A program made the translations under genes and the position numbers. The notes below the pieces were generated by a model, which saw nothing but the letters and a program-made list of their open reading frames with translations, was not told the origin of the DNA and searched no databases. A stretch of DNA of 64,000 bases from a virus (lineage: Duplodnaviria; Caudoviricetes), in IMG/VR virus record IMGVR_UViG_3300036982_000556, positions 3,498 through 67,497 of that record. One strand, 5' to 3'. Below are positions 1,546 through 49,583 of the stretch, piece after piece. Numbering within the stretch: the first letter of the stretch is position 1; every line of letters starts with the position of its first letter.

Positions 1546-3156
1546 TCACTTCTTCTTCCCCCGTTCCTCTTTCGCCTTCGCCAAACGGTACTCAGCAATC
1601 TCCGAAACCCAACGCTCGTTCCGGTCGATCCCCACAAACCCCATGCCCTCCTCAACAGCCGCAACACCCGTCGTCCCCGAACCACAGAACGGATCAAGCA
1701 CAACACCGCCCGGAGGAGTCACCAACCTGACAAGCCACTTCATCAACTCAACAGGGCGGACACGAGGATGATCGTTCTTCACGCCGAGAGGCAAACCAAC
1801 ATTGCGTTCAGCTTGCCTCGCAGGAGGAGTCACAAAGAACCGTGCGACATCACCAATCTCCTCCGCCGCTTCCTCATCAACAACAACCGTTGCGGGCCAC
1901 CGACCCAAGGTCGTTTTGCCAGTCACGACACGAGTCTTAGAAACCTCAGCACCATGACCACCCGCAATAGAATCCGAGGTGTTCCGATAAGAAGCCATCG
2001 CATCACGCTCACCTGACTCCACACGGCAAGCGTCAATGTTCATCGCACCTGTACCCCACTTCATCACAGACTCCGCAGCACTGCCCTTGTGAGGCTTCAC
2101 ACGGAACAACAGGATCGGTTTCCACGCAGGCTTCAACGCAGTAGACCACCCGTACCACGGGTTGTCCTCACCATGATTCTCAAGCCACGACTCGCGTTGC
2201 TCATCAGTCATACCGCTGATCTGCTTGAAGTACGGGTCGCCATCACCGCCAGACCTACGGTCCACCTGCATCCCAATATCTATCCCCGTTGGCATACCCG
2301 TCCCGAATAGCCACATCAACGTGTCACGCAACTCCAAGCCACCGTCCTCAGCGGCCACAGCAACCTTGTGCCAAGTCGTAGTCCCCGCTAACACAGCAAC
2401 ATAGCCGCCGGGTTTTACAACACGTTTGATCTCAGACCAGAAGTCAGGACCGGGAACCCACCTCCACCAATTATCACCAAGGTCAGCTTCGACCATCCGC
2501 TCACCCGCAGGTTTGATCCCGCCAAGAGGATCAGTCACACAAGAATCGAACGTGTTATCGGCATACTCAGCCAACAGTTCTAAACAGTTCCCGACAAACA
2601 ACTCAGACGTTGCACCCGGAGTAACACCTTCAACCTTCGAGACTGTCATCTCCTGCTCAGGAACTTCGACTTCTTTCACCTCAACAGGTTTCTTTGTCTC
2701 TGCCGATTCTTCTAACAACGCTCCCGCTGAAGCTGAAGCAAGTTGGAGTAACGCAGTGATCTCATCACCGGCGAACCCCGCATCAAGAAGCAACGAGTTA
2801 TCTGTTTCAGATACCTCAGCTAGAAGGGAAGCCAACTCAGCGTTGTCGTACTTCCCGTTATCGTGAGTCCGGTTGTCGGCAAGTGAACGGGCCACCGCAG
2901 TTTCCCGGTCGTCGTCCGTATACAGCACAGCGATCTCAGTCCACCCGAGTTGGATCGCAGCCTTATGGGTGTGGTTGCCAATCAGGATCTCCCCCGTGGC
3001 CTGCTGAACGACTATCGGCCTGTGCTGACCGAACCGTTCCAACGACTTCGCAACAGAGTCAACATCACCCCTGCGAGGGTTGCCCTTCATCTGCTGAACG
3101 TCCCCTATGGGGACAACCAGTGGCCTTAGACCGTCAAGGATATTAGAAGTCATCAC
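1546..3156 (-). CDS. ParB-like nuclease domain fused to an N4/N6 DNA methyltransferase
   Basis: N-terminal GNPRRGD...IVV...GNHT...LADNRT; VTDP catalytic-like motif; VLDPFCGSGTT SAM-binding motif. Confidence 0.85.
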   Translation of the reverse strand: MMTSNILDGLRPLVVPIGDVQQMKGNPRRGDVDSVAKSLERFGQHRPIVVQQATGEILIGNHTHKAAIQLGWTEIAVLYTDDDRETAVARSLADNRTHDNGKYDNAELASLLAEVSETDNSLLLDAGFAGDEITALLQLASASAGALLEESAETKKPVEVKEVEVPEQEMTVSKVEGVTPGATSELFVGNCLELLAEYADNTFDSCVTDPLGGIKPAGERMVEADLGDNWWRWVPGPDFWSEIKRVVKPGGYVAVLAGTTTWHKVAVAAEDGGLELRDTLMWLFGTGMPTGIDIGMQVDRRSGGDGDPYFKQISGMTDEQRESWLENHGEDNPWYGWSTALKPAWKPILLFRVKPHKGSAAESVMKWGTGAMNIDACRVESGERDAMASYRNTSDSIAGGHGAEVSKTRVVTGKTTLGRWPATVVVDEEAAEEIGDVARFFVTPPARQAERNVGLPLGVKNDHPRVRPVELMKWLVRLVTPPGGVVLDPFCGSGTTGVAAVEEGMGFVGIDRNERWVSEIAEYRLAKAKEERGKKK

Positions 3157-3174
3157 ACGCCTTTCAAGGGTGTT

Positions 3175-3208
3175 GGTTGCGGGGGCAGACTACCCGCCCC
3201 CGCAACCG
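3175..3208. terminator. GC-rich hairpin after the DUF932-like gene
   Basis: ggttgcgggggc/gcccccgcaacc 12-bp stem. Confidence 0.55.
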
Positions 3209-3211
3209 GGA

Positions 3212-4189
3212 TCAGCGGTCAACCTCAGCGAACACCGCAGCGGTTACCTTCTGGTCATCAAGGTCAATCGACCCCGACAGGAAGTCACTCATCGTGCGAC
3301 CAAGGCGTGACGTTGCACCGGCAGTGCCGTTCGCACGGAACGGGCGCTCATGCTGACGGTAGGTATTGAACGCCTGCACAACTCCCCATCCGGTTCCACG
3401 GAAGTCACCGACACGCTCATCGTTGCGGTAGATGTTCGACACCGACTCAACACGGTTCTCCCAACGAGTACGAGCAGCCTCGGTTGCGGACTCAGCAGGC
3501 ATAGGAGCCAAGCGGTTCACGATCCGGTAGAACTCGGTATCGCTCACTGACGTTTCGATCAGGGTCTTGACCTCAGCGTTGAAAGTCTCAGTCTGCTTCC
3601 ACATCATGCCAAGCGTGTTGCGGGCAGTCGTGAAGTTCATCGACGAGTTGATGGTGTGACGCAGCTTGAACACGTTTTTGTCATTCCTGCGTAGAGCGCC
3701 AATCTGGTTTGAGCAGATGAAGCGATACAAGCCCATCCGGTAGGAAGTGGCGAGTGAACCATCGTGCGAAGATGCAAGCGTGAGCGTTGGTGCAACGTCG
3801 CCGCTACCTGCTTCCAAGCAAGGTGCCTGAACCTGAATCCATCCGACCGCACCGTTCTTCAACAGCCCTGCACCCGAAACCTGAAGGTCAGTGTCAGACG
3901 CATCCAGCAGCTTGAACAAGTTGTCTACGAGAACCTCGTTGAACTGATGCAAGCCGTGAGACTTCGACACCGTGTTCAGGATTAGCCCGGTGTCAGTACG
4001 ACGAATCGCCTGACGGTTCGGAAGCTTCTGCGAGTCACCGAAAGCGTCATGGGTATACAGCGGGGTGTACTCCACCTTGAAGTCGAACAGGTTGCGCACA
4101 CGGTCGAATGGAACCGGGCCTTCCATGTTCTCTGTTGCGTGGACGCTTCCACCAAACCCAAGAATTGTGGTGTCTGTGTTGTTTGCCAT
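3212..4189 (-). CDS. DUF932/DUF945-family phage/plasmid protein
   Basis: GLLKNGAVGWI, ASSHDGSLA, RFICSNQ, KLRHT and GTGWGVVQAFNTY motifs. Confidence 0.8.
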   Translation of the reverse strand: MANNTDTTILGFGGSVHATENMEGPVPFDRVRNLFDFKVEYTPLYTHDAFGDSQKLPNRQAIRRTDTGLILNTVSKSHGLHQFNEVLVDNLFKLLDASDTDLQVSGAGLLKNGAVGWIQVQAPCLEAGSGDVAPTLTLASSHDGSLATSYRMGLYRFICSNQIGALRRNDKNVFKLRHTINSSMNFTTARNTLGMMWKQTETFNAEVKTLIETSVSDTEFYRIVNRLAPMPAESATEAARTRWENRVESVSNIYRNDERVGDFRGTGWGVVQAFNTYRQHERPFRANGTAGATSRLGRTMSDFLSGSIDLDDQKVTAAVFAEVDR

Positions 4190-7705: not shown

Positions 7706-7775
7706 AAAAAGAAATCTAAAGAATCTTGATTATTGACTTGACATGTGTAGTCGCATCGACTATCTTTATGGGGGT
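7706..7775 (+). promoter_or_regulatory. Repeated promoter, ncRNA-associated subtype
   Basis: TTGACA-17-TATCTT, spacer palindrome GTAGTCGCATCGACTA, then ATGGGGGTAAGG. Confidence 0.8.
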
Positions 7776-8268
7776 AAGGCAATACAACCTAAAGAACCGG
7801 ACAAAGCAACAGCTCGGGGAACACGGCGGTTAGGGTCCGCACACCAAAGACTCTCAAGTACAAGAATCAAGTTCTTAGATGATGAACTTGGAACCGTAGA
7901 AGTACCGGGCTGATCGCCAAGTGAAGCGCCCTACGGCACACAGCGATGTGCTTATGAAGGTGGTGGATGGATGTTGACATAGCGCGAGTGAATGCGGAGA
8001 ACGGCAAAAGCAATTAGTTCTGAGGTGAAGCGGTGCGTGCGCACAATCCGTGGAGTAGTAAGAACGAAAGCAAGTAGCCGGTCCAAGGGCATCTTCTAAA
8101 AACTTGATTCACACAACAGGCTAAAAGCAGCACAGGGAATATCGCCTGAAACAAAGTCCCGCCGCTGAACGAATCTTCCGGTGTTCCAAGGGTTGTAGAC
8201 CTCGGGTGACAGAAGATAGGAACAAAGGAACCCTCTGTGCAGTCAACCGACGGCAGAGGGTTTCTTTG
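7772..8268 (+). ncRNA. Candidate structured ncRNA C (~500 nt)
   Basis: No ORF of 60 aa or more. 5'/3' pairings tacaacct/gggttgta and ggaacacgg/ccggtgttcc; bounded by promoter and terminator. Confidence 0.65.
8225..8268 (+). terminator. Bidirectional intrinsic terminator between ncRNA C and terL
   Basis: gaaccctctg/cagagggtttc stem flanked by A- and T-rich tracts. Confidence 0.75.
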
Positions 8269-10940: not shown

Positions 10941-11131
10941 CTCAACTGAGATTCACTCCTACTGACATTGACCGGCTCAAAGCCACAGCAATCCTCATGG
11001 TCGGTTTCGACTGGCCCGAGGAAACAATCTGTAGGGCAATGGCTCACAGTGTCGGCTTAGGTTGGGAAGACTTCACGATGCCTGAGCGTGACTACGCTCT
11101 CATGCTGATCCGTGGAACACTGATGGTCTAA
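10937..11131 (+). CDS. Hypothetical protein
   Basis: ATGA overlap with the previous gene. Confidence 0.6.
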   Translation: MTQLRFTPTDIDRLKATAILMVGFDWPEETICRAMAHSVGLGWEDFTMPERDYALMLIRGTLMV

Positions 11132-11325
11132 CCCTCAGTGTCGTGGTTCTCGTACTCAACGCGAGCATCAGGAAACGCATTGCGCGCTTTACGGACCGCA
11201 TACCACCGGAACCTGAACGCCTGATCGGAAGCACCGATCACCCGGTTGTTCCCGGCCACGGCACGCCAGCGCCACAACCCTGACTCGCTTCCTTTGTAGA
11301 TGACGACCTTGTTCCCCTTAGCCAT
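11128..11325 (-). CDS. YegP/DUF1508-like small protein
   Basis: IYKG..GLWRWRAVAGNNRVIG.S motif. Confidence 0.65.
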   Translation of the reverse strand: MAKGNKVVIYKGSESGLWRWRAVAGNNRVIGASDQAFRFRWYAVRKARNAFPDARVEYENHDTEG

Positions 11326-12089
11326 TACGAACGCAACCGCTGAGAAATCATGTCCGCTGTTGCTGTTGCGTTTTGTGCCGACGTTGGTGCAGCAGCCCCA
11401 CCGCTAACAACAATCGGATTCACCGTCTTATTCGCTGTCAGCTTTGTGAACACATCAAGGTTTACATCCTGAACCTTCGCACCAAAGAAGATCAGCAACG
11501 GAAGTTCCTCAGCAGAAATCCAACGACGGTTGAAGTCGTCGATCACTTCGACACGACCGTGGTTCGGATCTCCGGGCTGATTCAATCTTAGGTAACTGCT
11601 TGCCATTTCATCCTCCGGTGTTGGGATCGGTTGTGACCCTGTTGCTATTCCTGTTGCTATCTCAGCAGGCGAAGCAACTATCTCGTAGTGCATCGCATCT
11701 TTGTTGCCAGAGTAGTCGCCGCCCCAGCGGAACACGCCGACCCCGTTGTTTGTTCTGATCGCTTTGATCTCATCGACCATCCCACGAGGCATGTCCGTAA
11801 TGAGGACAGGACCGTAAGGGTTCTTCTGCCAGTTGATGTCAGCGGCTATCCCGTAAGCGTGGAGCGAGTACTGCGTCCCACCTGTGATGGCCCGACAGTT
11901 GTACGCACCGCAGTCGGGGGGTGTGGCCTTGTAGTCCCATTTGATGAGTACAGCGTTGAGTGCTTGCCAAGCTTCAACGGTTGAGGCACGAACACTGATC
12001 GAAGCACCGCCGAACAGGGGAACGGAAGCGAACGGCCCAGTGCAGGCGGGCGACCAGAGGACTCGGAGTTGTGCGGTCGTCCGGCTCAT
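11325..12089 (-). CDS. Endolysin, M15-family peptidase
   Basis: YNCR...SLHAYGIAADIN...FRWGGDY...DAMHYEI. Confidence 0.88.
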   Translation of the reverse strand: MSRTTAQLRVLWSPACTGPFASVPLFGGASISVRASTVEAWQALNAVLIKWDYKATPPDCGAYNCRAITGGTQYSLHAYGIAADINWQKNPYGPVLITDMPRGMVDEIKAIRTNNGVGVFRWGGDYSGNKDAMHYEIVASPAEIATGIATGSQPIPTPEDEMASSYLRLNQPGDPNHGRVEVIDDFNRRWISAEELPLLIFFGAKVQDVNLDVFTKLTANKTVNPIVVSGGAAAPTSAQNATATADMISQRLRS

Positions 12090-12238
12090 ACCATTTCCTC
12101 CTCGTCGTTCATGCCGTGCGGAGCGTTGTCGTCGGGGAACACTCCGGCGTGGATGACGATTCCTTGGCGGGCGTACATCTCGTGGTCTACGAGTTCGACG
12201 TAGCGGTCTAGGTCTTCAGCCGAAAGGTTTGAGTCCAT
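12086..12238 (-). CDS. Small acidic hypothetical protein
   Basis: Stop overlaps the endolysin ATG; translated by hand. Confidence 0.5.
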   Translation of the reverse strand: MDSNLSAEDLDRYVELVDHEMYARQGIVIHAGVFPDDNAPHGMNDEEEMV

Positions 12239-12299
12239 GTGGTTGATCGTAGTCGTGTGGTTGTGGGTTGGCAGGGTGGTCTTGGCGATGTGACAAGAG

Positions 12300-12365
12300 T
12301 CACAAACAAATAGTAGTTATTGACTTGATTAGTGTAGAACCATCAACTACATTCATAGGGGTAGG
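12300..12365 (+). promoter_or_regulatory. Repeated promoter, ncRNA-associated subtype
   Basis: TTGATT-17-TACATT then CATAGGGGTAGG. Confidence 0.75.
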
Positions 12366-13250
12366 AGCAACCAACAGCAAGGAGACAAACAAACGCAACA
12401 TCAAAACCAAACAGAGAACGACCGCCACCCGAGCCAGACCCAAGGCTCCATCAAGACAGTTCGCTTGAGTCTTGAAAGGGTGAGGCGGCAGTAGCGCACC
12501 ACTACAAATCACGGTGACGGTTCCAGCCGAGGAACAGAAAGTAACGGCAAAGCCTGAGAGACAACAGGCAAACAACTTCAAGGCTTCAAGCCTTGAGCAG
12601 AATGTGGCGGGGTGCAACTCCCCGGCGGGGAAAGACGCAAGAACAGTCGATCAAAGCGTTGGTGGAGGCATCAACGTGAGCAAGGTACATCGGTGCTACG
12701 CAGTGGGAGCCTACACATTCTGGTCAAGCCTTGAAACCTTGAAGTCAGCTAGTCAAGCTGAAAGCGAAGCGTGCGCAATCCTTGGCACTTGAGGTGAAGA
12801 ATCAAACGGCCACCGAGTAACCCATACACCCACGGCTCTTGGAATAGAGTCACGGAACTCATCGCACTCCTCTCCCTCGCAACATATCTAAGGGTTGCGC
12901 ACACTTCGCTTCCAGTCCGACTAGCACAACAAGAACCGCAGAGACATCAGGGCAACCCCTTGCAGGGTTGTAAACCTGTGACAGGTCACGGACCCGGCAA
13001 GAGTCCACTCAAGGCATTGAGGACCACACAGGCGACTGCGCCTGATGTACTGACTGCGGGGAGGCAGATGAAGGGGAGAACGTAACTCTCGGATGTTGTA
13101 CCTGAAGTACCCGATGACTTGCCGTCAGATCAGGGGCCAGCCAACTACAAAACCGGGGCGACAGACCGATACAGAAATGTGATCGGCGCAACCTGTGAAG
13201 GCCGAACAAAGAAACCCTCTCGCTCTAGGGCGGGGGGGCTATTTGTTTTT
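12359..13250 (+). ncRNA. Candidate large structured ncRNA D (~890 nt) inside the lysis cassette
   Basis: An AAGGAG with no following start; many hairpins including ctcaa-GGCA-ttgag and aca-GAAA-tgt; 3' end resembles that of ncRNA C. Confidence 0.6.
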
Positions 13251-13677
13251 AGTCAGCCATCGGCTCAGGAGCATAAGCCACTGGGAGAAGCGCCGCTGTC
13301 TCAGGGTCACCAACCCGCCGAGCGCCTTCAGCTTTCAACGCCGACACAGCGCCAACCGCCCCAGCCCCAAGCGCCGCTTTCCAGAAATCGCCTGACTGAA
13401 CGTCAAGCACGGGTGCCATCACCATGAACGCAAGGAACGCAGACGCACCGGAACGTAACACACGCAATGTGAGATCCGTGTAGAACGGCATCCCCACAGG
13501 GATCACAGCGGAGTTGACCGAGTTGAGCGCAAGCGTGATAACCGCCGACACCCCAGCCAACACTGCGCACTGGATCGCCGTCCAACCGAATGCCATCCCG
13601 CCGAACAGGGCCACGACGAACGCTTGAACGAATTGAGATAACACCTTCTCAACGATGGGAACAATAAGTTGTTTCAT
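13249..13677 (-). CDS. Holin-like membrane protein with duplicated unit
   Basis: Four hydrophobic helices; EKVLSQFVQAF and RVLRSGASAF repeats; next to the endolysin. Confidence 0.7.
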   Translation of the reverse strand: MKQLIVPIVEKVLSQFVQAFVVALFGGMAFGWTAIQCAVLAGVSAVITLALNSVNSAVIPVGMPFYTDLTLRVLRSGASAFLAFMVMAPVLDVQSGDFWKAALGAGAVGAVSALKAEGARRVGDPETAALLPVAYAPEPMAD

Positions 13678-14051
13678 TCTTCTTCTCCCGTGTCAGTCTT
13701 TCGGGTCCGGGCGGTCCGGGTAGGTTGAATCAAACTGTCAGGCATCGGCACGTTTACCTGTTTGAGATGTTCGACAAGTGCCGCGAACTTGCGTTCAAGT
13801 TCGTTGCAACGAAAAGCCTCAGACGATGCTCGTGCTTCAAGCCGGTCGTAACGCTTTCTGCTCTTAGCAAGATCCGCTTCCAACACCTCTAGCCGCTTAC
13901 CAAGCATCTCCGCAGCGGGAACCGTTGCGTTCAACAGTCTCTCAGCGTAATCAGCTTGTGAAGGTCTGCGGCCTGAAATGTAAGTGAGTACCGTCGTCAG
14001 CGCGCCTATACCAATCGCCACTATCGTTGTTACTCCGAATTGTTCAGCCAC
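13674..14051 (-). CDS. Membrane-anchored coiled-coil protein (lysis region)
   Basis: N-terminal TM segment followed by a coiled coil. Confidence 0.65.
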   Translation of the reverse strand: MAEQFGVTTIVAIGIGALTTVLTYISGRRPSQADYAERLLNATVPAAEMLGKRLEVLEADLAKSRKRYDRLEARASSEAFRCNELERKFAALVEHLKQVNVPMPDSLIQPTRTARTRKTDTGEEE

Positions 14052-14380
14052 TTATCGCCCCGTTCTATGCGTTCCATTAGCTCACACTGTTTGCGCATGA
14101 GCGCTGTTTCAATCATTGAAGACAGTGCGACGCAGATGATGCCGATAGCGATACACGCCCCGTACACAACTCGCAGTTGACCTCGGTGGTCTTCATCAAC
14201 AAACCCTGCTGCGAAGACTATCGCTGAAGCAGCAATTCCGAATGATGTCAAAGCGATCATCGTGAAACCGAAACGTGCGAGATGCGTCAAGTACGCCTGA
14301 AGGATCACTGCCGAAACGGTAAACCCGACAGCGCCCCAAGTGAAAAACACCGCCGCCGCTAGAAGCCACGCCCCCGTCAT
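14030..14380 (-). CDS. Membrane protein (lysis region)
   Basis: Three hydrophobic helices. Confidence 0.65.
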   Translation of the reverse strand: MTGAWLLAAAVFFTWGAVGFTVSAVILQAYLTHLARFGFTMIALTSFGIAASAIVFAAGFVDEDHRGQLRVVYGACIAIGIICVALSSMIETALMRKQCELMERIERGDKWLNNSE

Positions 14381-15303
14381 ACGTCCTCAGCCTCCAGCAA
14401 GTCAGTCATCGTAAGAGTGAACTTCCCTACGTTCGACCCAACCCAAGTGTTACCTGTCTGCACTTGGATATGTGGTTGCAACGGTTTCGCAGGATCATTG
14501 TTTGTAAAGCCTGAGCGGTCGATGATCCTCAACCCGTACAACGCAGCAGCCTCAGCAAGCGAACGACACTCACCGCCAAGAGCAACCATCCGCTGATAAG
14601 AACCAGACCCACGATCCAACACCAACTTCCCCCCGGCGCGTGGCCCAGTGGTGAGCGTCCCGTCGCAACCGACGTAATCCGGTAGGACAATCGCTAGGTC
14701 ATGCGGATCAGTCTGCGACCAAGGGGTCCAAACGTGCATGTGATGGGCGTAACCCGTAGCAGTGCAGGGTTTGCCCTCAACGCACACACCGTCCAACCAG
14801 CGGCCCCACATGAGCGCCTGATTAGGGATAGGCGGTAACGCAGGCGCAGCGAGCGGGTCGAACTGAATTAGCTCATGGACCGTCCCGTCAGGCGAGGTAA
14901 TAATCTCATGCCTGTCCCAGCTTGGGGTCGGCCAGCCTCGTGTGTAGTACTCGCCGGAAGCAGGCAGAGGGATCAACGTCCGTGCTTGTTCCCACTTACC
15001 GTAACCCCCACCGTAGGTCAGCGTCCGAGTCTTGTCCGTTCCTTGTTGCATGAACGTCCCCGTTGAGATCCCTGATGGTCCGACAATATCCGGTGAGAAC
15101 GGGCGGGTTGTCAAACCGATGTACCAGTCAGGCCACTGAACAGGGCCGGTTGGGATAGCTACTGTGCGGGCTTTAGGAAGTTCAAGCCTGCTACAAGAAG
15201 GAAGCGTAAAGTACTTCCACTGGGTAGCCCGGTGTGCGAGGCGTGACCAATCGTTGACGAAACGCCCCCATACCAACCGCTCAATCGCGTTAGGTGTAGC
15301 CAT
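14377..15303 (-). CDS. Hypothetical protein
   Basis: 308-aa ORF coupled to the downstream gene. Confidence 0.75.
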   Translation of the reverse strand: MATPNAIERLVWGRFVNDWSRLAHRATQWKYFTLPSCSRLELPKARTVAIPTGPVQWPDWYIGLTTRPFSPDIVGPSGISTGTFMQQGTDKTRTLTYGGGYGKWEQARTLIPLPASGEYYTRGWPTPSWDRHEIITSPDGTVHELIQFDPLAAPALPPIPNQALMWGRWLDGVCVEGKPCTATGYAHHMHVWTPWSQTDPHDLAIVLPDYVGCDGTLTTGPRAGGKLVLDRGSGSYQRMVALGGECRSLAEAAALYGLRIIDRSGFTNNDPAKPLQPHIQVQTGNTWVGSNVGKFTLTMTDLLEAEDV

Positions 15304-16534: not shown

Positions 16535-16602
16535 GTAGATAACGATACAGCATGGGTGTGACATTATCAAGTCACTAACCAAGATTGTTTGATATTTCTT
16601 TT
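16525..16602 (-). promoter_or_regulatory. Repeated promoter with leaderless start
   Basis: Near-identical to 4830-4907. Confidence 0.8.
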
Positions 16603-47987: not shown

Positions 47988-49093
47988 GCGAACAAGTCCC
48001 CTTGGACGGTGGCGGGTGGTTTGTTATCCGCAGGGTTCAAGCAGTGTGGTGAGGCCCACAACCGTTCCCGATCCTGCTGATGCCCGCTACCGTCTTGGCT
48101 TTGCTGAGAATACCCGCCTTGTAGATAGCCGGTTGTGAACCATTCGTGAGATGTCCACCCGAGGTCGGCTAGTTCGTTGTCATGTTCACCGTCGTAGCCT
48201 GCCAAAACAATCCTACGGTCCGGGTCATCACCGTATTCAGCGCACCACGCTTTGACTTTATGGGCCACCTCAAAATCATCAAACCCGTAGAGTCCTGTAC
48301 TGCGTTCCGCTGTGTCTGCGTAGGGCGGGTCAAGGAAAATACCTGCGTGACCGCCGCCCATGCGGACGTTGAGAGTTTTGGATGCACCGTCAGTCACAAG
48401 CCTCGCCCAATCTCCGTTCAGGATACGAACATGGCGCAACCTAGCGGAGAGCCATTGAAACCAGCGGACCAGTTCGGGCATGGTGTGCGGGTGAAACTCG
48501 TTGCCCGGTTGGTCTGACAGCACGCCGGGTTCACAATTAGACGAACGGTTCACACCTCTGCCATTGCTGAGATGTGGGCGGTCGCGTTTCACACCCGGTT
48601 CACCATACCCTTCAGCTTTGCGGTCGATCTTGACAATCATCCCGTTTTCGTCAGCGGTCCACGGTCCGCCTCTTACGAACGCCCCGATCTGAATGCACAC
48701 GCCCCACAACCACCAACCCGCCATCTTAGGGTCACACCATTCAGCAGAACCACCAAGCTTTGCTACAAGGTTATCTTCACGCCAGCGGGTGAGTGCTAGT
48801 TCTCTAGCCATTTTGTCTAGTTCGCTTACAGGCCACGATGCGTGTTCTGCTGTTTCTTCCGGGTGCCATTGAATCGCTCTCCACGCGTTTACGATCAGGC
48901 CGTCAAGGTCGTTGACAGTTTCAGCCCGACCTGTGTTCACAGGGTGCGGCCTGTTCAACAGCACAGCCAACGAACCGGCGAACGGTTCAACGTAATGTTC
49001 AACATCCCCTAATAGTTCCCACACAAGCGGTGCAGCCTTGGACTTCCCGCCGAACCACGGAAACGGTGCCTTCGACAAATTCTTCAAGGTCAT
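47984..49093 (-). CDS. DNA adenine methyltransferase (Dam/D12-like), copy 2
   Basis: Same motifs; tandem paralog. Confidence 0.9.
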   Translation of the reverse strand: MTLKNLSKAPFPWFGGKSKAAPLVWELLGDVEHYVEPFAGSLAVLLNRPHPVNTGRAETVNDLDGLIVNAWRAIQWHPEETAEHASWPVSELDKMARELALTRWREDNLVAKLGGSAEWCDPKMAGWWLWGVCIQIGAFVRGGPWTADENGMIVKIDRKAEGYGEPGVKRDRPHLSNGRGVNRSSNCEPGVLSDQPGNEFHPHTMPELVRWFQWLSARLRHVRILNGDWARLVTDGASKTLNVRMGGGHAGIFLDPPYADTAERSTGLYGFDDFEVAHKVKAWCAEYGDDPDRRIVLAGYDGEHDNELADLGWTSHEWFTTGYLQGGYSQQSQDGSGHQQDRERLWASPHCLNPADNKPPATVQGDLFA

Positions 49094-49241
49094 CAGTCAA
49101 CAACTTCTGCCTTAGCGCACTGCGGACAATGAGCAGCGCACCACCACTGCTCACCATCTTTAGTGTTGTAAGTATCGTGATCGACACCCGGCAACACACC
49201 CGCACCACACTCAGCACAATGTTCTAACTGGATCGGTTCAT

Positions 49242-49583
49242 TCACGCGTTCATCCGAGATGAAATGAAACCAGCGCCACCGGCGACAGCGAACGCACTGA
49301 TCCAACCGTCAACTCCAAGTTGCCACGGCCACGCACGAAACCAGACACAAACCAGAATCCAAGAAACGTGCATACCGAGACACCACACACAAGTCAACAA
49401 GTCGCCAATGAAGCCGGTCGCCCAGTTGCGGTTGCTTCCGTCGGGGTTGTAACAGAATGTGTCTAGTCGTTGTGACATCTTCGATTCGGATTCCAAGCTG
49501 AAACCGATGAGTGAGTCACGGACAAAGAAACGTGTGATCCGGTACGCGGCGAGGATCAGCCCTGCGTAGACAAGGGCGCTCAT
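49242..49583 (-). CDS. DUF1360-like membrane protein
   Basis: AAYRITRFF..DS...LLTCVWCLG. Confidence 0.75.
   Translation of the reverse strand: MSALVYAGLILAAYRITRFFVRDSLIGFSLESESKMSQRLDTFCYNPDGSNRNWATGFIGDLLTCVWCLGMHVSWILVCVWFRAWPWQLGVDGWISAFAVAGGAGFISSRMNA

Follow-up and report, generated by a model that had tools for sequence, protein, structure and literature searches.

The stretch of DNA analyzed here, called the window, comprises 64 kb (bases 3498-67497) of the 67.5-kb IMG/VR virus record IMGVR_UViG_3300036982_000556, which derives from an uncultivated lake phage, and coordinates are those of the window unless a locus is named. In the gap between its holin-like and endolysin genes lies a unit, designated D, which is very probably a genuine gene for a structured non-coding RNA (ncRNA). 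The original prediction had placed a structured ncRNA of ~890 nucleotides (nt) on the strand opposite the lysis genes, and this is supported by transcription signals, covariation among homologs and a missing coding signature. Among the large structured phage RNAs, a kind already known, D appears to represent a new family, and sequence comparison shows purifying selection on its plus strand in favor of a modular fold. The fuller statement, in which the structured ncRNA gene is also a moron-like cassette whose product acts in trans as a folded RNA, is favored as well, with more reserve.

D is preceded by a sigma-70-type promoter (Table 1), which is the sole match to TTG-N3/16-18/TANNNT on either strand between 12200 and 13300, and from the position of its -10 box a transcript start near 12359-61 is deduced. 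The promoter belongs to a cassette of ~60 nt with further copies at 7730(+), 18355(+) and 20764-20826(-), and other members of this promoter family drive protein genes as well. Where relatives use a second promoter subtype, D is again preceded by a repeated cassette. A palindrome, TGTAG-N9-CTACA (12333-51), spans the promoter spacer and the -10 box. With one mismatch allowed this motif was matched 10 times in the window against 0.79 expected, and where checked the sites lie within repeated promoter cassettes; the motif resembles an operator at which a dimeric phage regulator would bind across the -10 box. At its other end D finishes with an intrinsic terminator which adjoins the holin stop codon (13249-51). 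The terminator stem is present, with changes, in all homologs, and the terminator is similar to that of RNA C/terL (RNA C being another candidate RNA of this genome). Judged by consensus matches, promoter and terminator are D's own and share one strand, and 12325-13250 (+) forms a complete predicted transcription unit. Gene order, together with these promoter and terminator matches, confirms the proposal that the lysis cassette is split by a promoter-to-terminator unit on the opposite strand.

D lacks a protein-coding signature. The plus strand of the ~1-kb gap between endolysin and holin is A-rich and T-poor (A 279 and T 151 of 931 bases), and the overlap of D with coding sequence amounts to only 2 nt of the holin stop codon. 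All three kinds of stop codon occur in 6/6 frames, and stop-codon recoding was rejected, as no single reassignment opens a frame. No open reading frame (ORF) is common to all D homologs. Conservation of the 92-codon ORF 12514-12792 as a protein had been named in the original prediction as something that would speak against a non-coding D, and the frame was found not to be conserved in this way. It is frame-shifted by the 170-nt deletion of a hairpin arm, module 1, in some relatives and truncated by the 186-nt deletion of a second arm, module 2, in others; its variable sites are spread 9:9:6 over the codon positions; and its synonymous to non-synonymous changes relative to the window number 1:12, both in L010 and in L069 (homologous loci carry handles beginning with L). 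Applied to the neighboring genes, the same comparisons gave a holin ratio of 53:9 and an endolysin ratio of 88:21, and the changes were strongly biased toward third positions.

It is scarcely credible, then, that D encodes a protein or small peptides, whether from ORF 12514-12792, from a 187-codon ORF in L078 or from the short ORFs 12960-13085 and 13093-13182. The 92-codon frame is open in several relatives, an AAGGAG lies near the 5' end, and a gene caller annotated a 187-amino acid (aa) product across D in L078 (641-1204(-)) and L079 (630-1193(-)). However, the L078 ORF is the 12514-12792 frame extended and begins inside the promoter spacer, upstream of the deduced transcript start; it has no coding signature, and the call is probably artefactual. 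The 170-nt and 186-nt indels interrupt the frame in other relatives, its codon-position spread and substitution ratio stand against the third-position bias of the neighboring genes, its 92-aa product gave no match in Pfam or PHROGs, and no start codon follows the AAGGAG in any homolog.

Homologs were sought in IMG/VR with the holin and endolysin proteins, and then with their protein clusters in ENA, JGI and Logan assemblies. D was found in 40 fetched loci, amounting to 15 distinct sequences, and in all 40 it lies between the holin and a small ORF plus endolysin. Identity to the window is 90-100% in the core blocks of D (94-99% for conserved block 1 and 90-100% for the 3' core) against 84-93% in the flanking genes. 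In the most divergent pairs the holin and endolysin are ~84-85% identical, yet block 1 retains 96% and the 3' core 90% identity. Beyond this clade the element was not seen. Two conserved motifs of D are confined to D-bearing contigs within IMG/VR, a blastn comparison of D with 50,697 phage records gave no match among cultured phages, and a 20-mer used to scan metagenomes hit, apart from a contig already known, only a bacterial coding gene (L056), by chance. With R1, a covariance model built on the 3' core, no paralog was detected in the window, no copy in the loci of distant relatives and no match in 10 loci from metagenome-assembled genomes (MAGs), 5 MAG genomes and 151 genomes of the probable host class. 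In the more distant holin relatives the endolysin and holin are directly adjacent, without D.

The phages of this clade are strongly mosaic, and it was considered whether D could be a sequence not selected for RNA, namely a recently spread recombination module or the remnant of a decayed moron. Some variants do look like recombinants: L009 combines a window-type 5' part with an L010-type 3' end, L078 carries both 5' inserts, and one D sequence (the L010-type) is identical in 13 loci from different samples. This explanation is nonetheless highly unlikely. Block 1 and the 3' core keep the identities given above in the pairs whose flanks have diverged most, substitutions are concentrated in compensatory pairs, and indels add or remove whole hairpins rather than random pieces.

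The whole of RNA D folds at -334 kcal/mol, with z = -6.1 relative to shuffled sequences. In an alignment of 6 sequences of the 3' domain, 15 pairs had changed on both sides compared with 6.8 ± 1.8 in shuffles (0/500), and slid controls gave 0-5. With 10 sequences, 97.7% of cells were paired and 34 cells were double-changed against 12.0 ± 2.4 shuffled (0/500), corresponding to 12 double-changed pairs against 7.6 ± 1.4 shuffled (2/500), with 0-3 pairs in slid controls. Compensatory changes were found in helices 1, 3, 4 and 6 of the 3' core, and helices 8-11 of the variable 3' domain each have double changes (A:U <-> G:C, C:G <-> U:A). Near the 5' end, the P1 helix occurs as the haplotypes G:C+A:U, A:U+G:C and A:U+A:U with an intermediate G.U+G:C, and P1a shows a C:G <-> U:A exchange. 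Covariation among homologs had been proposed as a check on the ncRNA, and such changes indeed occur in the 3' domain, where they exceed shuffles, and in P1 and P1a; helices appear to be kept by compensatory substitutions beyond controls, in a small sample of related sequences. Columns of helices that switch between Watson-Crick and G.U pairs number 30 versus 12 switching to A.C, or by cells 56 G.U versus 11 A.C. This G.U excess favors the plus strand as RNA, with the caveat that the structure was predicted on the plus strand.

The length of D is ~890 nt in the window and ~650-920 nt across homologs, with 651 nt for the L010-type. Its predicted fold (Table 1) starts with an unpaired leader, followed by P1, which encloses an insert of 7, 8 or 30 nt depending on the homolog, and some relatives have a different extra hairpin right after P1. 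Block 1 includes a quasi-palindrome, UCACGGUGA, which is unable to form a hairpin by itself; pairing between two RNA copies or with UCACGG (12987-12992) is possible. Two long, optional hairpin arms of 170-180 nt come next. Module 1 is missing in the L009, L025 and L087 types and has a consensus fold of 61 pairs with zero double changes. Module 2 is missing in the L006, L008, L010, L069 and L078 types, while its apical motif UCCUCUCCC is retained in the divergent L025/L087 version, and its folds have z = -4.6 and -6.2. At least one long arm is present in every homolog and both are present in the window-type, L005-type and L107-type, the arms being gained or lost as entire hairpins. A mobile hairpin (MITE-like) origin of the two modules was rejected: no other copies were found in the genome, nor were tandem or direct repeats (TRF reported only an 8-nt, 2.4-copy trace, and direct-repeat families were absent).

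The remainder of D consists of the 3' core, built around a multi-branch junction, and a variable 3' domain with two sequence types which form the same helices. The GGCA loop of the 3' core (13013-16) is invariant. All five hairpins listed in the original prediction were recovered in this fold: ccgccaccc/gggtgaggcgg as P1 (12422-30/12478-88), tcaagac/gtcttga as P1b (12451-57/12469-75), caaccc/gggttg within 12952-71, ctcaa-GGCA-ttgag at 13008-21 and ccgat...GAAA...atcgg at 13166-86. Four of the five lie in helices with compensatory changes, and caaccc/gggttg is invariant.

It is envisaged that the host RNA polymerase would transcribe D from its sigma-70/sigma-A-type phage promoter, with the operator-like palindrome, and that the transcript would end at the intrinsic terminator. 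The product would then act in trans as a stable folded RNA, as a scaffold, a ribonucleoprotein or a decoy, and neither as an mRNA nor as a simple antisense RNA. The 5' leader has an unpaired probability of 0.64-0.78 versus 0.41 for the whole of RNA D. As had been predicted, an AAGGAG without a following start codon is located near the 5' end, at 12379-84; it is invariant in all aligned homologs, across two promoter subtypes, and no ATG, GTG or TTG was found at a conserved place after it in the homologs. By analogy, its most likely role, put forward tentatively, is as a docking site for the 30S ribosomal subunit; the exposed AAGGAG would bind 30S at the 5' end and so protect D from 5'-end-dependent decay. 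The GGCA loop and a UUGCC apical loop in the 3' domain are complementary to each other, and both are invariant in all homologs on stems that covary. This suggests a candidate tertiary or intermolecular kissing contact, which invariance cannot prove, and the kissing-loop idea is likewise a tentative one.

Several points weigh against the view of D as a trans-acting structured ncRNA. The transcription start and RNA ends are placed by consensus matches only. The family is narrow: its 15 sequences come from a single phage clade and many are recombinants of a few module types, and part of the high identity could stem from recent recombination among mosaic phages rather than from selection. Modules 1 and 2 show little or no covariation, the independent compensatory events are few, and shuffle controls overstate significance for related sequences. 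The trans role, the 30S docking and the kissing loops are inferred. Lastly, the reverse strand of D also folds well (z = -5.2), and because both strands do so, folding energy alone cannot pick the strand.

Folding of both strands far better than shuffles would also be expected of an element acting at the DNA level, where hairpins in single-stranded or cruciform DNA could serve as a replication origin, a single-strand initiation site or a packaging signal, and compensatory changes would preserve DNA hairpins too. This possibility is very remote, however. The unit is framed by a promoter cassette and a terminator that co-vary in position with it, no direct repeats, iterons or AT-rich segment were found in D, and the excess of G.U over A.C is strand-specific.

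A further alternative is that D is a cis-acting device for lysis timing, in which its transcription, or a sense-antisense duplex, sets the read-through of the holin operon into the endolysin. This could proceed by polymerase collision, by a two-way terminator or by RNase III cleavage of a duplex of ~0.9 kb, with the fold serving only for stability. No minus-strand TTG-N3/16-18/TANNNT promoter was found between holin and endolysin, the nearest one upstream being at 16570, and because of this the endolysin appears to depend on read-through. An A-rich run upstream of the D terminator produces a weaker terminator-like hairpin on the minus strand, and transcription of the holin operon appears to begin at the 16570 promoter and to run into a partly two-way terminator. 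D converges on this operon, and its antisense strand folds stably as well. Against these points, the only antisense target available to D is a spacer of its own making; a promoter and a terminator would suffice for interference, which does not call for 650-900 nt of sequence that is more conserved than the neighboring genes, with compensatory pairs and a G.U bias on the plus strand; and the distant relatives in which endolysin and holin are adjacent do so without any D-like unit. The cis device is therefore considered unlikely.

A cis-antisense regulator of the lambda OOP type was also rejected, the overlap being the 2 nt of the holin stop and complementarity of at least 14 nt not being found elsewhere. 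Exact complementary or direct matches of this length between D and the rest of the genome were absent bar the RNA C/terL terminator similarity, and the top RNAduplex partners of the D leader were merely GT-rich stretches. Action in trans is preferred over a pure cis-antisense function because D overlaps no coding sequence apart from those 2 nt, its sole antisense partner would be a self-created spacer, complementarity to other parts of the genome does not exceed chance, and selection acts on the plus-strand fold over the full length. A role of D in lysis timing is possible all the same, and convergent transcription and a sense-antisense duplex could damp read-through into the endolysin as a secondary effect.

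Table 1. Predicted features of D and of its genomic surroundings (window coordinates).
Feature	Position	Strand	Remarks
Promoter	12325-12353	+	-35 TTGATT 12325-30, 17-nt spacer, -10 TACATT 12348-53
5' leader	12359-12421	+	CA-rich, predicted unpaired; AAGGAG 12379-84; conserved CCAAACCAAACAGAGAA; no start codon
P1 helix	12422-30 / 12478-88	+	encloses P1a and optional P1b
P1a hairpin	12431-35 / 12444-48	+	GAGCC / GGCTC; invariant loop AGACCCAA
P1b optional hairpin	12451-57 / 12469-75	+	tcaagac/gtcttga
Conserved block 1	12489-12571	+	nearly invariant across homologs
P2 hairpin (block 1)	12491-94 / 12502-05	+	GTAG / CTAC
Quasi-palindrome (block 1)	12509-17	+	UCACGGUGA; invariant
Small hairpin (block 1)	12526-29 / 12545-48	+	GCCG / CGGC
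Small hairpin (block 1)	12552-56 / 12565-69	+	GCCTG / CAGGC
Module 1, long irregular hairpin arm	12575-12745	+	32-nt arms 12575-12606 / 12714-12745, 107 nt between
Module 2, second long hairpin arm	12748-12925	+	36-nt arms 12748-83 / 12890-12925, 106 nt between
3' core	12936-13059	+	16-pair closing helix 12936-51 / 13041-59 around multi-branch (three-way) junction
3' core sub-helices	12952-58/12965-71, 12975-80/13027-32, 12984-87/13022-25, 12990-95/13001-06, 13008-12/13017-21	+	
Variable 3' domain	13060-13203	+	two sequence types, same helices
TGAC/GTCA hairpin (3' domain)	13115-18 / 13124-27	+	invariant loop UUGCC 13119-23
GAAA-capped optional hairpin (3' domain)	13166-86	+	
Intrinsic terminator	13204-13250	+	stem 13215-38, U-run to 13250
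TGTAG-N9-CTACA sites	813, 10059, 12333, 18373, 20791, 23913, 41046, 56667, 59496, 63438		
Endolysin, M15 peptidase	11325-12089	-	Pfam PF13539; context, outside RNA D
50-codon ORF upstream of endolysin	12086-12238	-	overlaps endolysin; context, outside RNA D
Holin-like gene	13249-13677	-	phrog_443 holin, E = 4e-6; context, outside RNA D

The holin-like gene is preceded on the minus strand by genes for membrane proteins. The large terminase of the phage is ~25% identical to that of any cultured phage. The closest relatives of its endolysin in genomes are all from Actinomycetota MAGs (L058-L067), with 49-60% identity over the main aligned segment, and these MAGs are mostly Acidimicrobiia (Microthrixaceae, Acidimicrobiaceae, Iamiaceae, Euzebyaceae). 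On account of these endolysin relatives and the TANNNT -10 boxes, the host is probably a member of the Acidimicrobiia (Actinomycetota).

In relatives without D the region between the lysis genes is organized differently. In L033, several small protein-coding genes in antisense orientation occupy the position upstream of the endolysin (2380-3760 on the minus strand of that locus). Each of these genes has an ATG and a Shine-Dalgarno sequence (SD), and between them lie TGTGCTACAAT repeats plus a hairpin (GTCGGG...CCCGAC). Here the position of D is taken by other cargo. In another branch of the clade (L007, L012 and L070-L077) the holin is followed directly by a convergent gene for a 523-aa terminase-like protein, and in L070 the endolysin (M15 + PG_binding_1) is upstream of the holin. 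From these gene orders it follows that the lysis region has been rearranged among relatives.

Elsewhere in the genome, the segment 1-1416, which holds the candidate RNAs A and B, is 98% identical in the relative G002 (48086-49495), with 84-89% for neighboring segments. Such ORF-poor, hyper-conserved units behind the promoter family of D raise the possibility of a multi-RNA program. When D was compared with the candidate RNAs A, B, C, E and F for paralogy, all that emerged was a weak ~30-nt resemblance of module 2 to C (z = 4.3). It should also be noted that 12760-12800 and 8005-8045 (RNA C) share CTGA..AAGCG..GCGTGCGC..AATCC and the 10-mer TGAGGTGAAG, the motif statistics being marginal. A further segment, 26789-28405, contains one 538-aa ORF which matches both a pyridoxal phosphate (PLP)-dependent enzyme domain (PF00291, residues 117-298) and an N6/N4 DNA methylase (PF01555).

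To our knowledge, bacterial and phage RNAs of more than ~500 nt with folds supported by covariation are rare. The known large classes, such as RNase P, group I/II introns, OLE, GOLLD and ROOL, are catalytic or structurally remarkable. D is a well-delimited candidate to join them. Its family is small and modular, with variants of 650-920 nt that amount to natural domain swaps, it occupies a defined genomic slot, and its clear boundaries and variants make it suitable for transcription in vitro, chemical probing and cryo-EM. The phages that carry it probably infect uncultivated freshwater-type Acidimicrobiia, in which phage RNA biology is almost unexplored, and should its function prove tied to lysis or host takeover, the purpose of large phage RNAs could be approached through D. 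A bolder and rather unlikely reading is that D is the founding member of a new class of giant "ornate" phage RNAs which act as RNA machines by themselves. It might, for example, form a homo-oligomer held by GGCA/UUGCC and UCACGGUGA with exchangeable arms, and the phage would express at least five such large structured RNAs, D included, from one promoter family (together ~5% of the genome). In a sharper variant, abundant D might titrate the anti-SD ends of 30S via its AAGGAG, favoring the leaderless mRNAs of the phage.

Whether D belongs to a described family was examined with cmscan and 4227 Rfam models, over 11000-15000 at E <= 1 and over the whole window at gathering score. No Rfam family relevant to D was found in these searches; the sole match over 11000-15000 was D12-methyl (E = 0.81), inside the endolysin gene. 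The original prediction had put forward the GOLLD, ROOL, OLE and HEARO models for this comparison, and none was matched at E <= 1. ARAGORN found no tRNA or transfer-messenger RNA (tmRNA) in the 64-kb window, and no gene for IscB, TnpB or reverse transcriptase lies beside D.

A number of specific candidates were rejected on this basis. A hallmark of OLE RNA is its association with oap genes in Firmicutes; its model was not matched, and the neighbors of D are lysis genes. HEARO/omega RNA had neither a model match nor an adjacent IscB or TnpB gene, and group I/II introns had no model match, D being intergenic with promoter and terminator signals of its own. The tmRNA, RNase P, 6S and SRP RNAs gave no covariance-model or ARAGORN match, and short RNase P-like and 4.5S-like words seen by eye were dropped as they had no model support. 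For a type III antitoxin RNA or a CRISPR-like array, tandem direct repeats were sought and not found, and the covariance models of GOLLD and ROOL were unmatched. D shares its phage origin and size range with GOLLD and ROOL, but with no relevant cmscan match, no tRNA or tmRNA and none of the tRNA, IscB/TnpB or reverse-transcriptase neighbors, it can hardly be regarded as a divergent member of GOLLD, ROOL, OLE, HEARO/omega, the introns, RNase P, tmRNA, 6S or SRP.

Of the known systems, the STAB-SD of the Bacillus thuringiensis cryIIIA leader and of similar leaders in Gram-positive bacteria is an SD-like 5' sequence without a translation start. Where the host has RNase J, the proposed role of this element is to bind 30S and shield the RNA from 5'-end-dependent decay, and Actinomycetota possess RNase J. 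D resembles it in its exposed, invariant AAGGAG, ~20 nt from the deduced 5' end and without a start codon; however, STAB-SD stabilizes mRNAs of Firmicutes, while D would be a non-coding RNA of an Actinomycetota phage.

Cluster A mycobacteriophages (L5, D29, StarStuff) produce an abundant and stable Pleft ncRNA from a transcribed region of ~500 bp at the right end of the genome (PMC5712189). It is the most abundant phage transcript, is made from a strong host-type phage promoter, contains no conserved ORF and has no known function (PMC5712189). Like the RNA proposed for D, it is a non-coding RNA of an actinobacteriophage; unlike D, it is located at the genome end and not in a lysis cassette. 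No sequence similarity between the two was detected, D having no match in the phage collection. We know of no covariation-supported fold reported for the Pleft ncRNA.

ROOL (Rumen-Originating, Ornate, Large) RNA is ~600 nt long, is found in phages and prophages, has no known protein partner or function and contains a poorly conserved linker (PMC12286853). The variable parts of D are whole hairpin arms, in contrast to the disordered linker of ROOL, and the two also differ in host range and in that D has no tRNA context. Both GOLLD and ROOL build RNA-only nanocages (PMC12286853). Such assembly is a property of these two RNAs; for D, the only leads in this direction are its complementary or quasi-palindromic invariant loops.

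GOLLD RNA exceeds 800 nt, is encoded by phages and prophages, has no known function, is found in lake metagenomes and is increasingly expressed during phage lysis (PMC12286853). It is frequently located near tRNA genes or islands in phages and prophages (PMC12286853). D differs from GOLLD in having its own promoter cassette and an SD-like leader, and no tRNA gene lies in the window. The suggestion that D is of the GOLLD type fails as regards membership, cmscan having given no GOLLD match at E <= 1, but it stands as regards size and kind: both RNAs are large, heavily structured and phage-borne, with conserved parts beside less conserved or variable ones, and D is situated in the lysis region.

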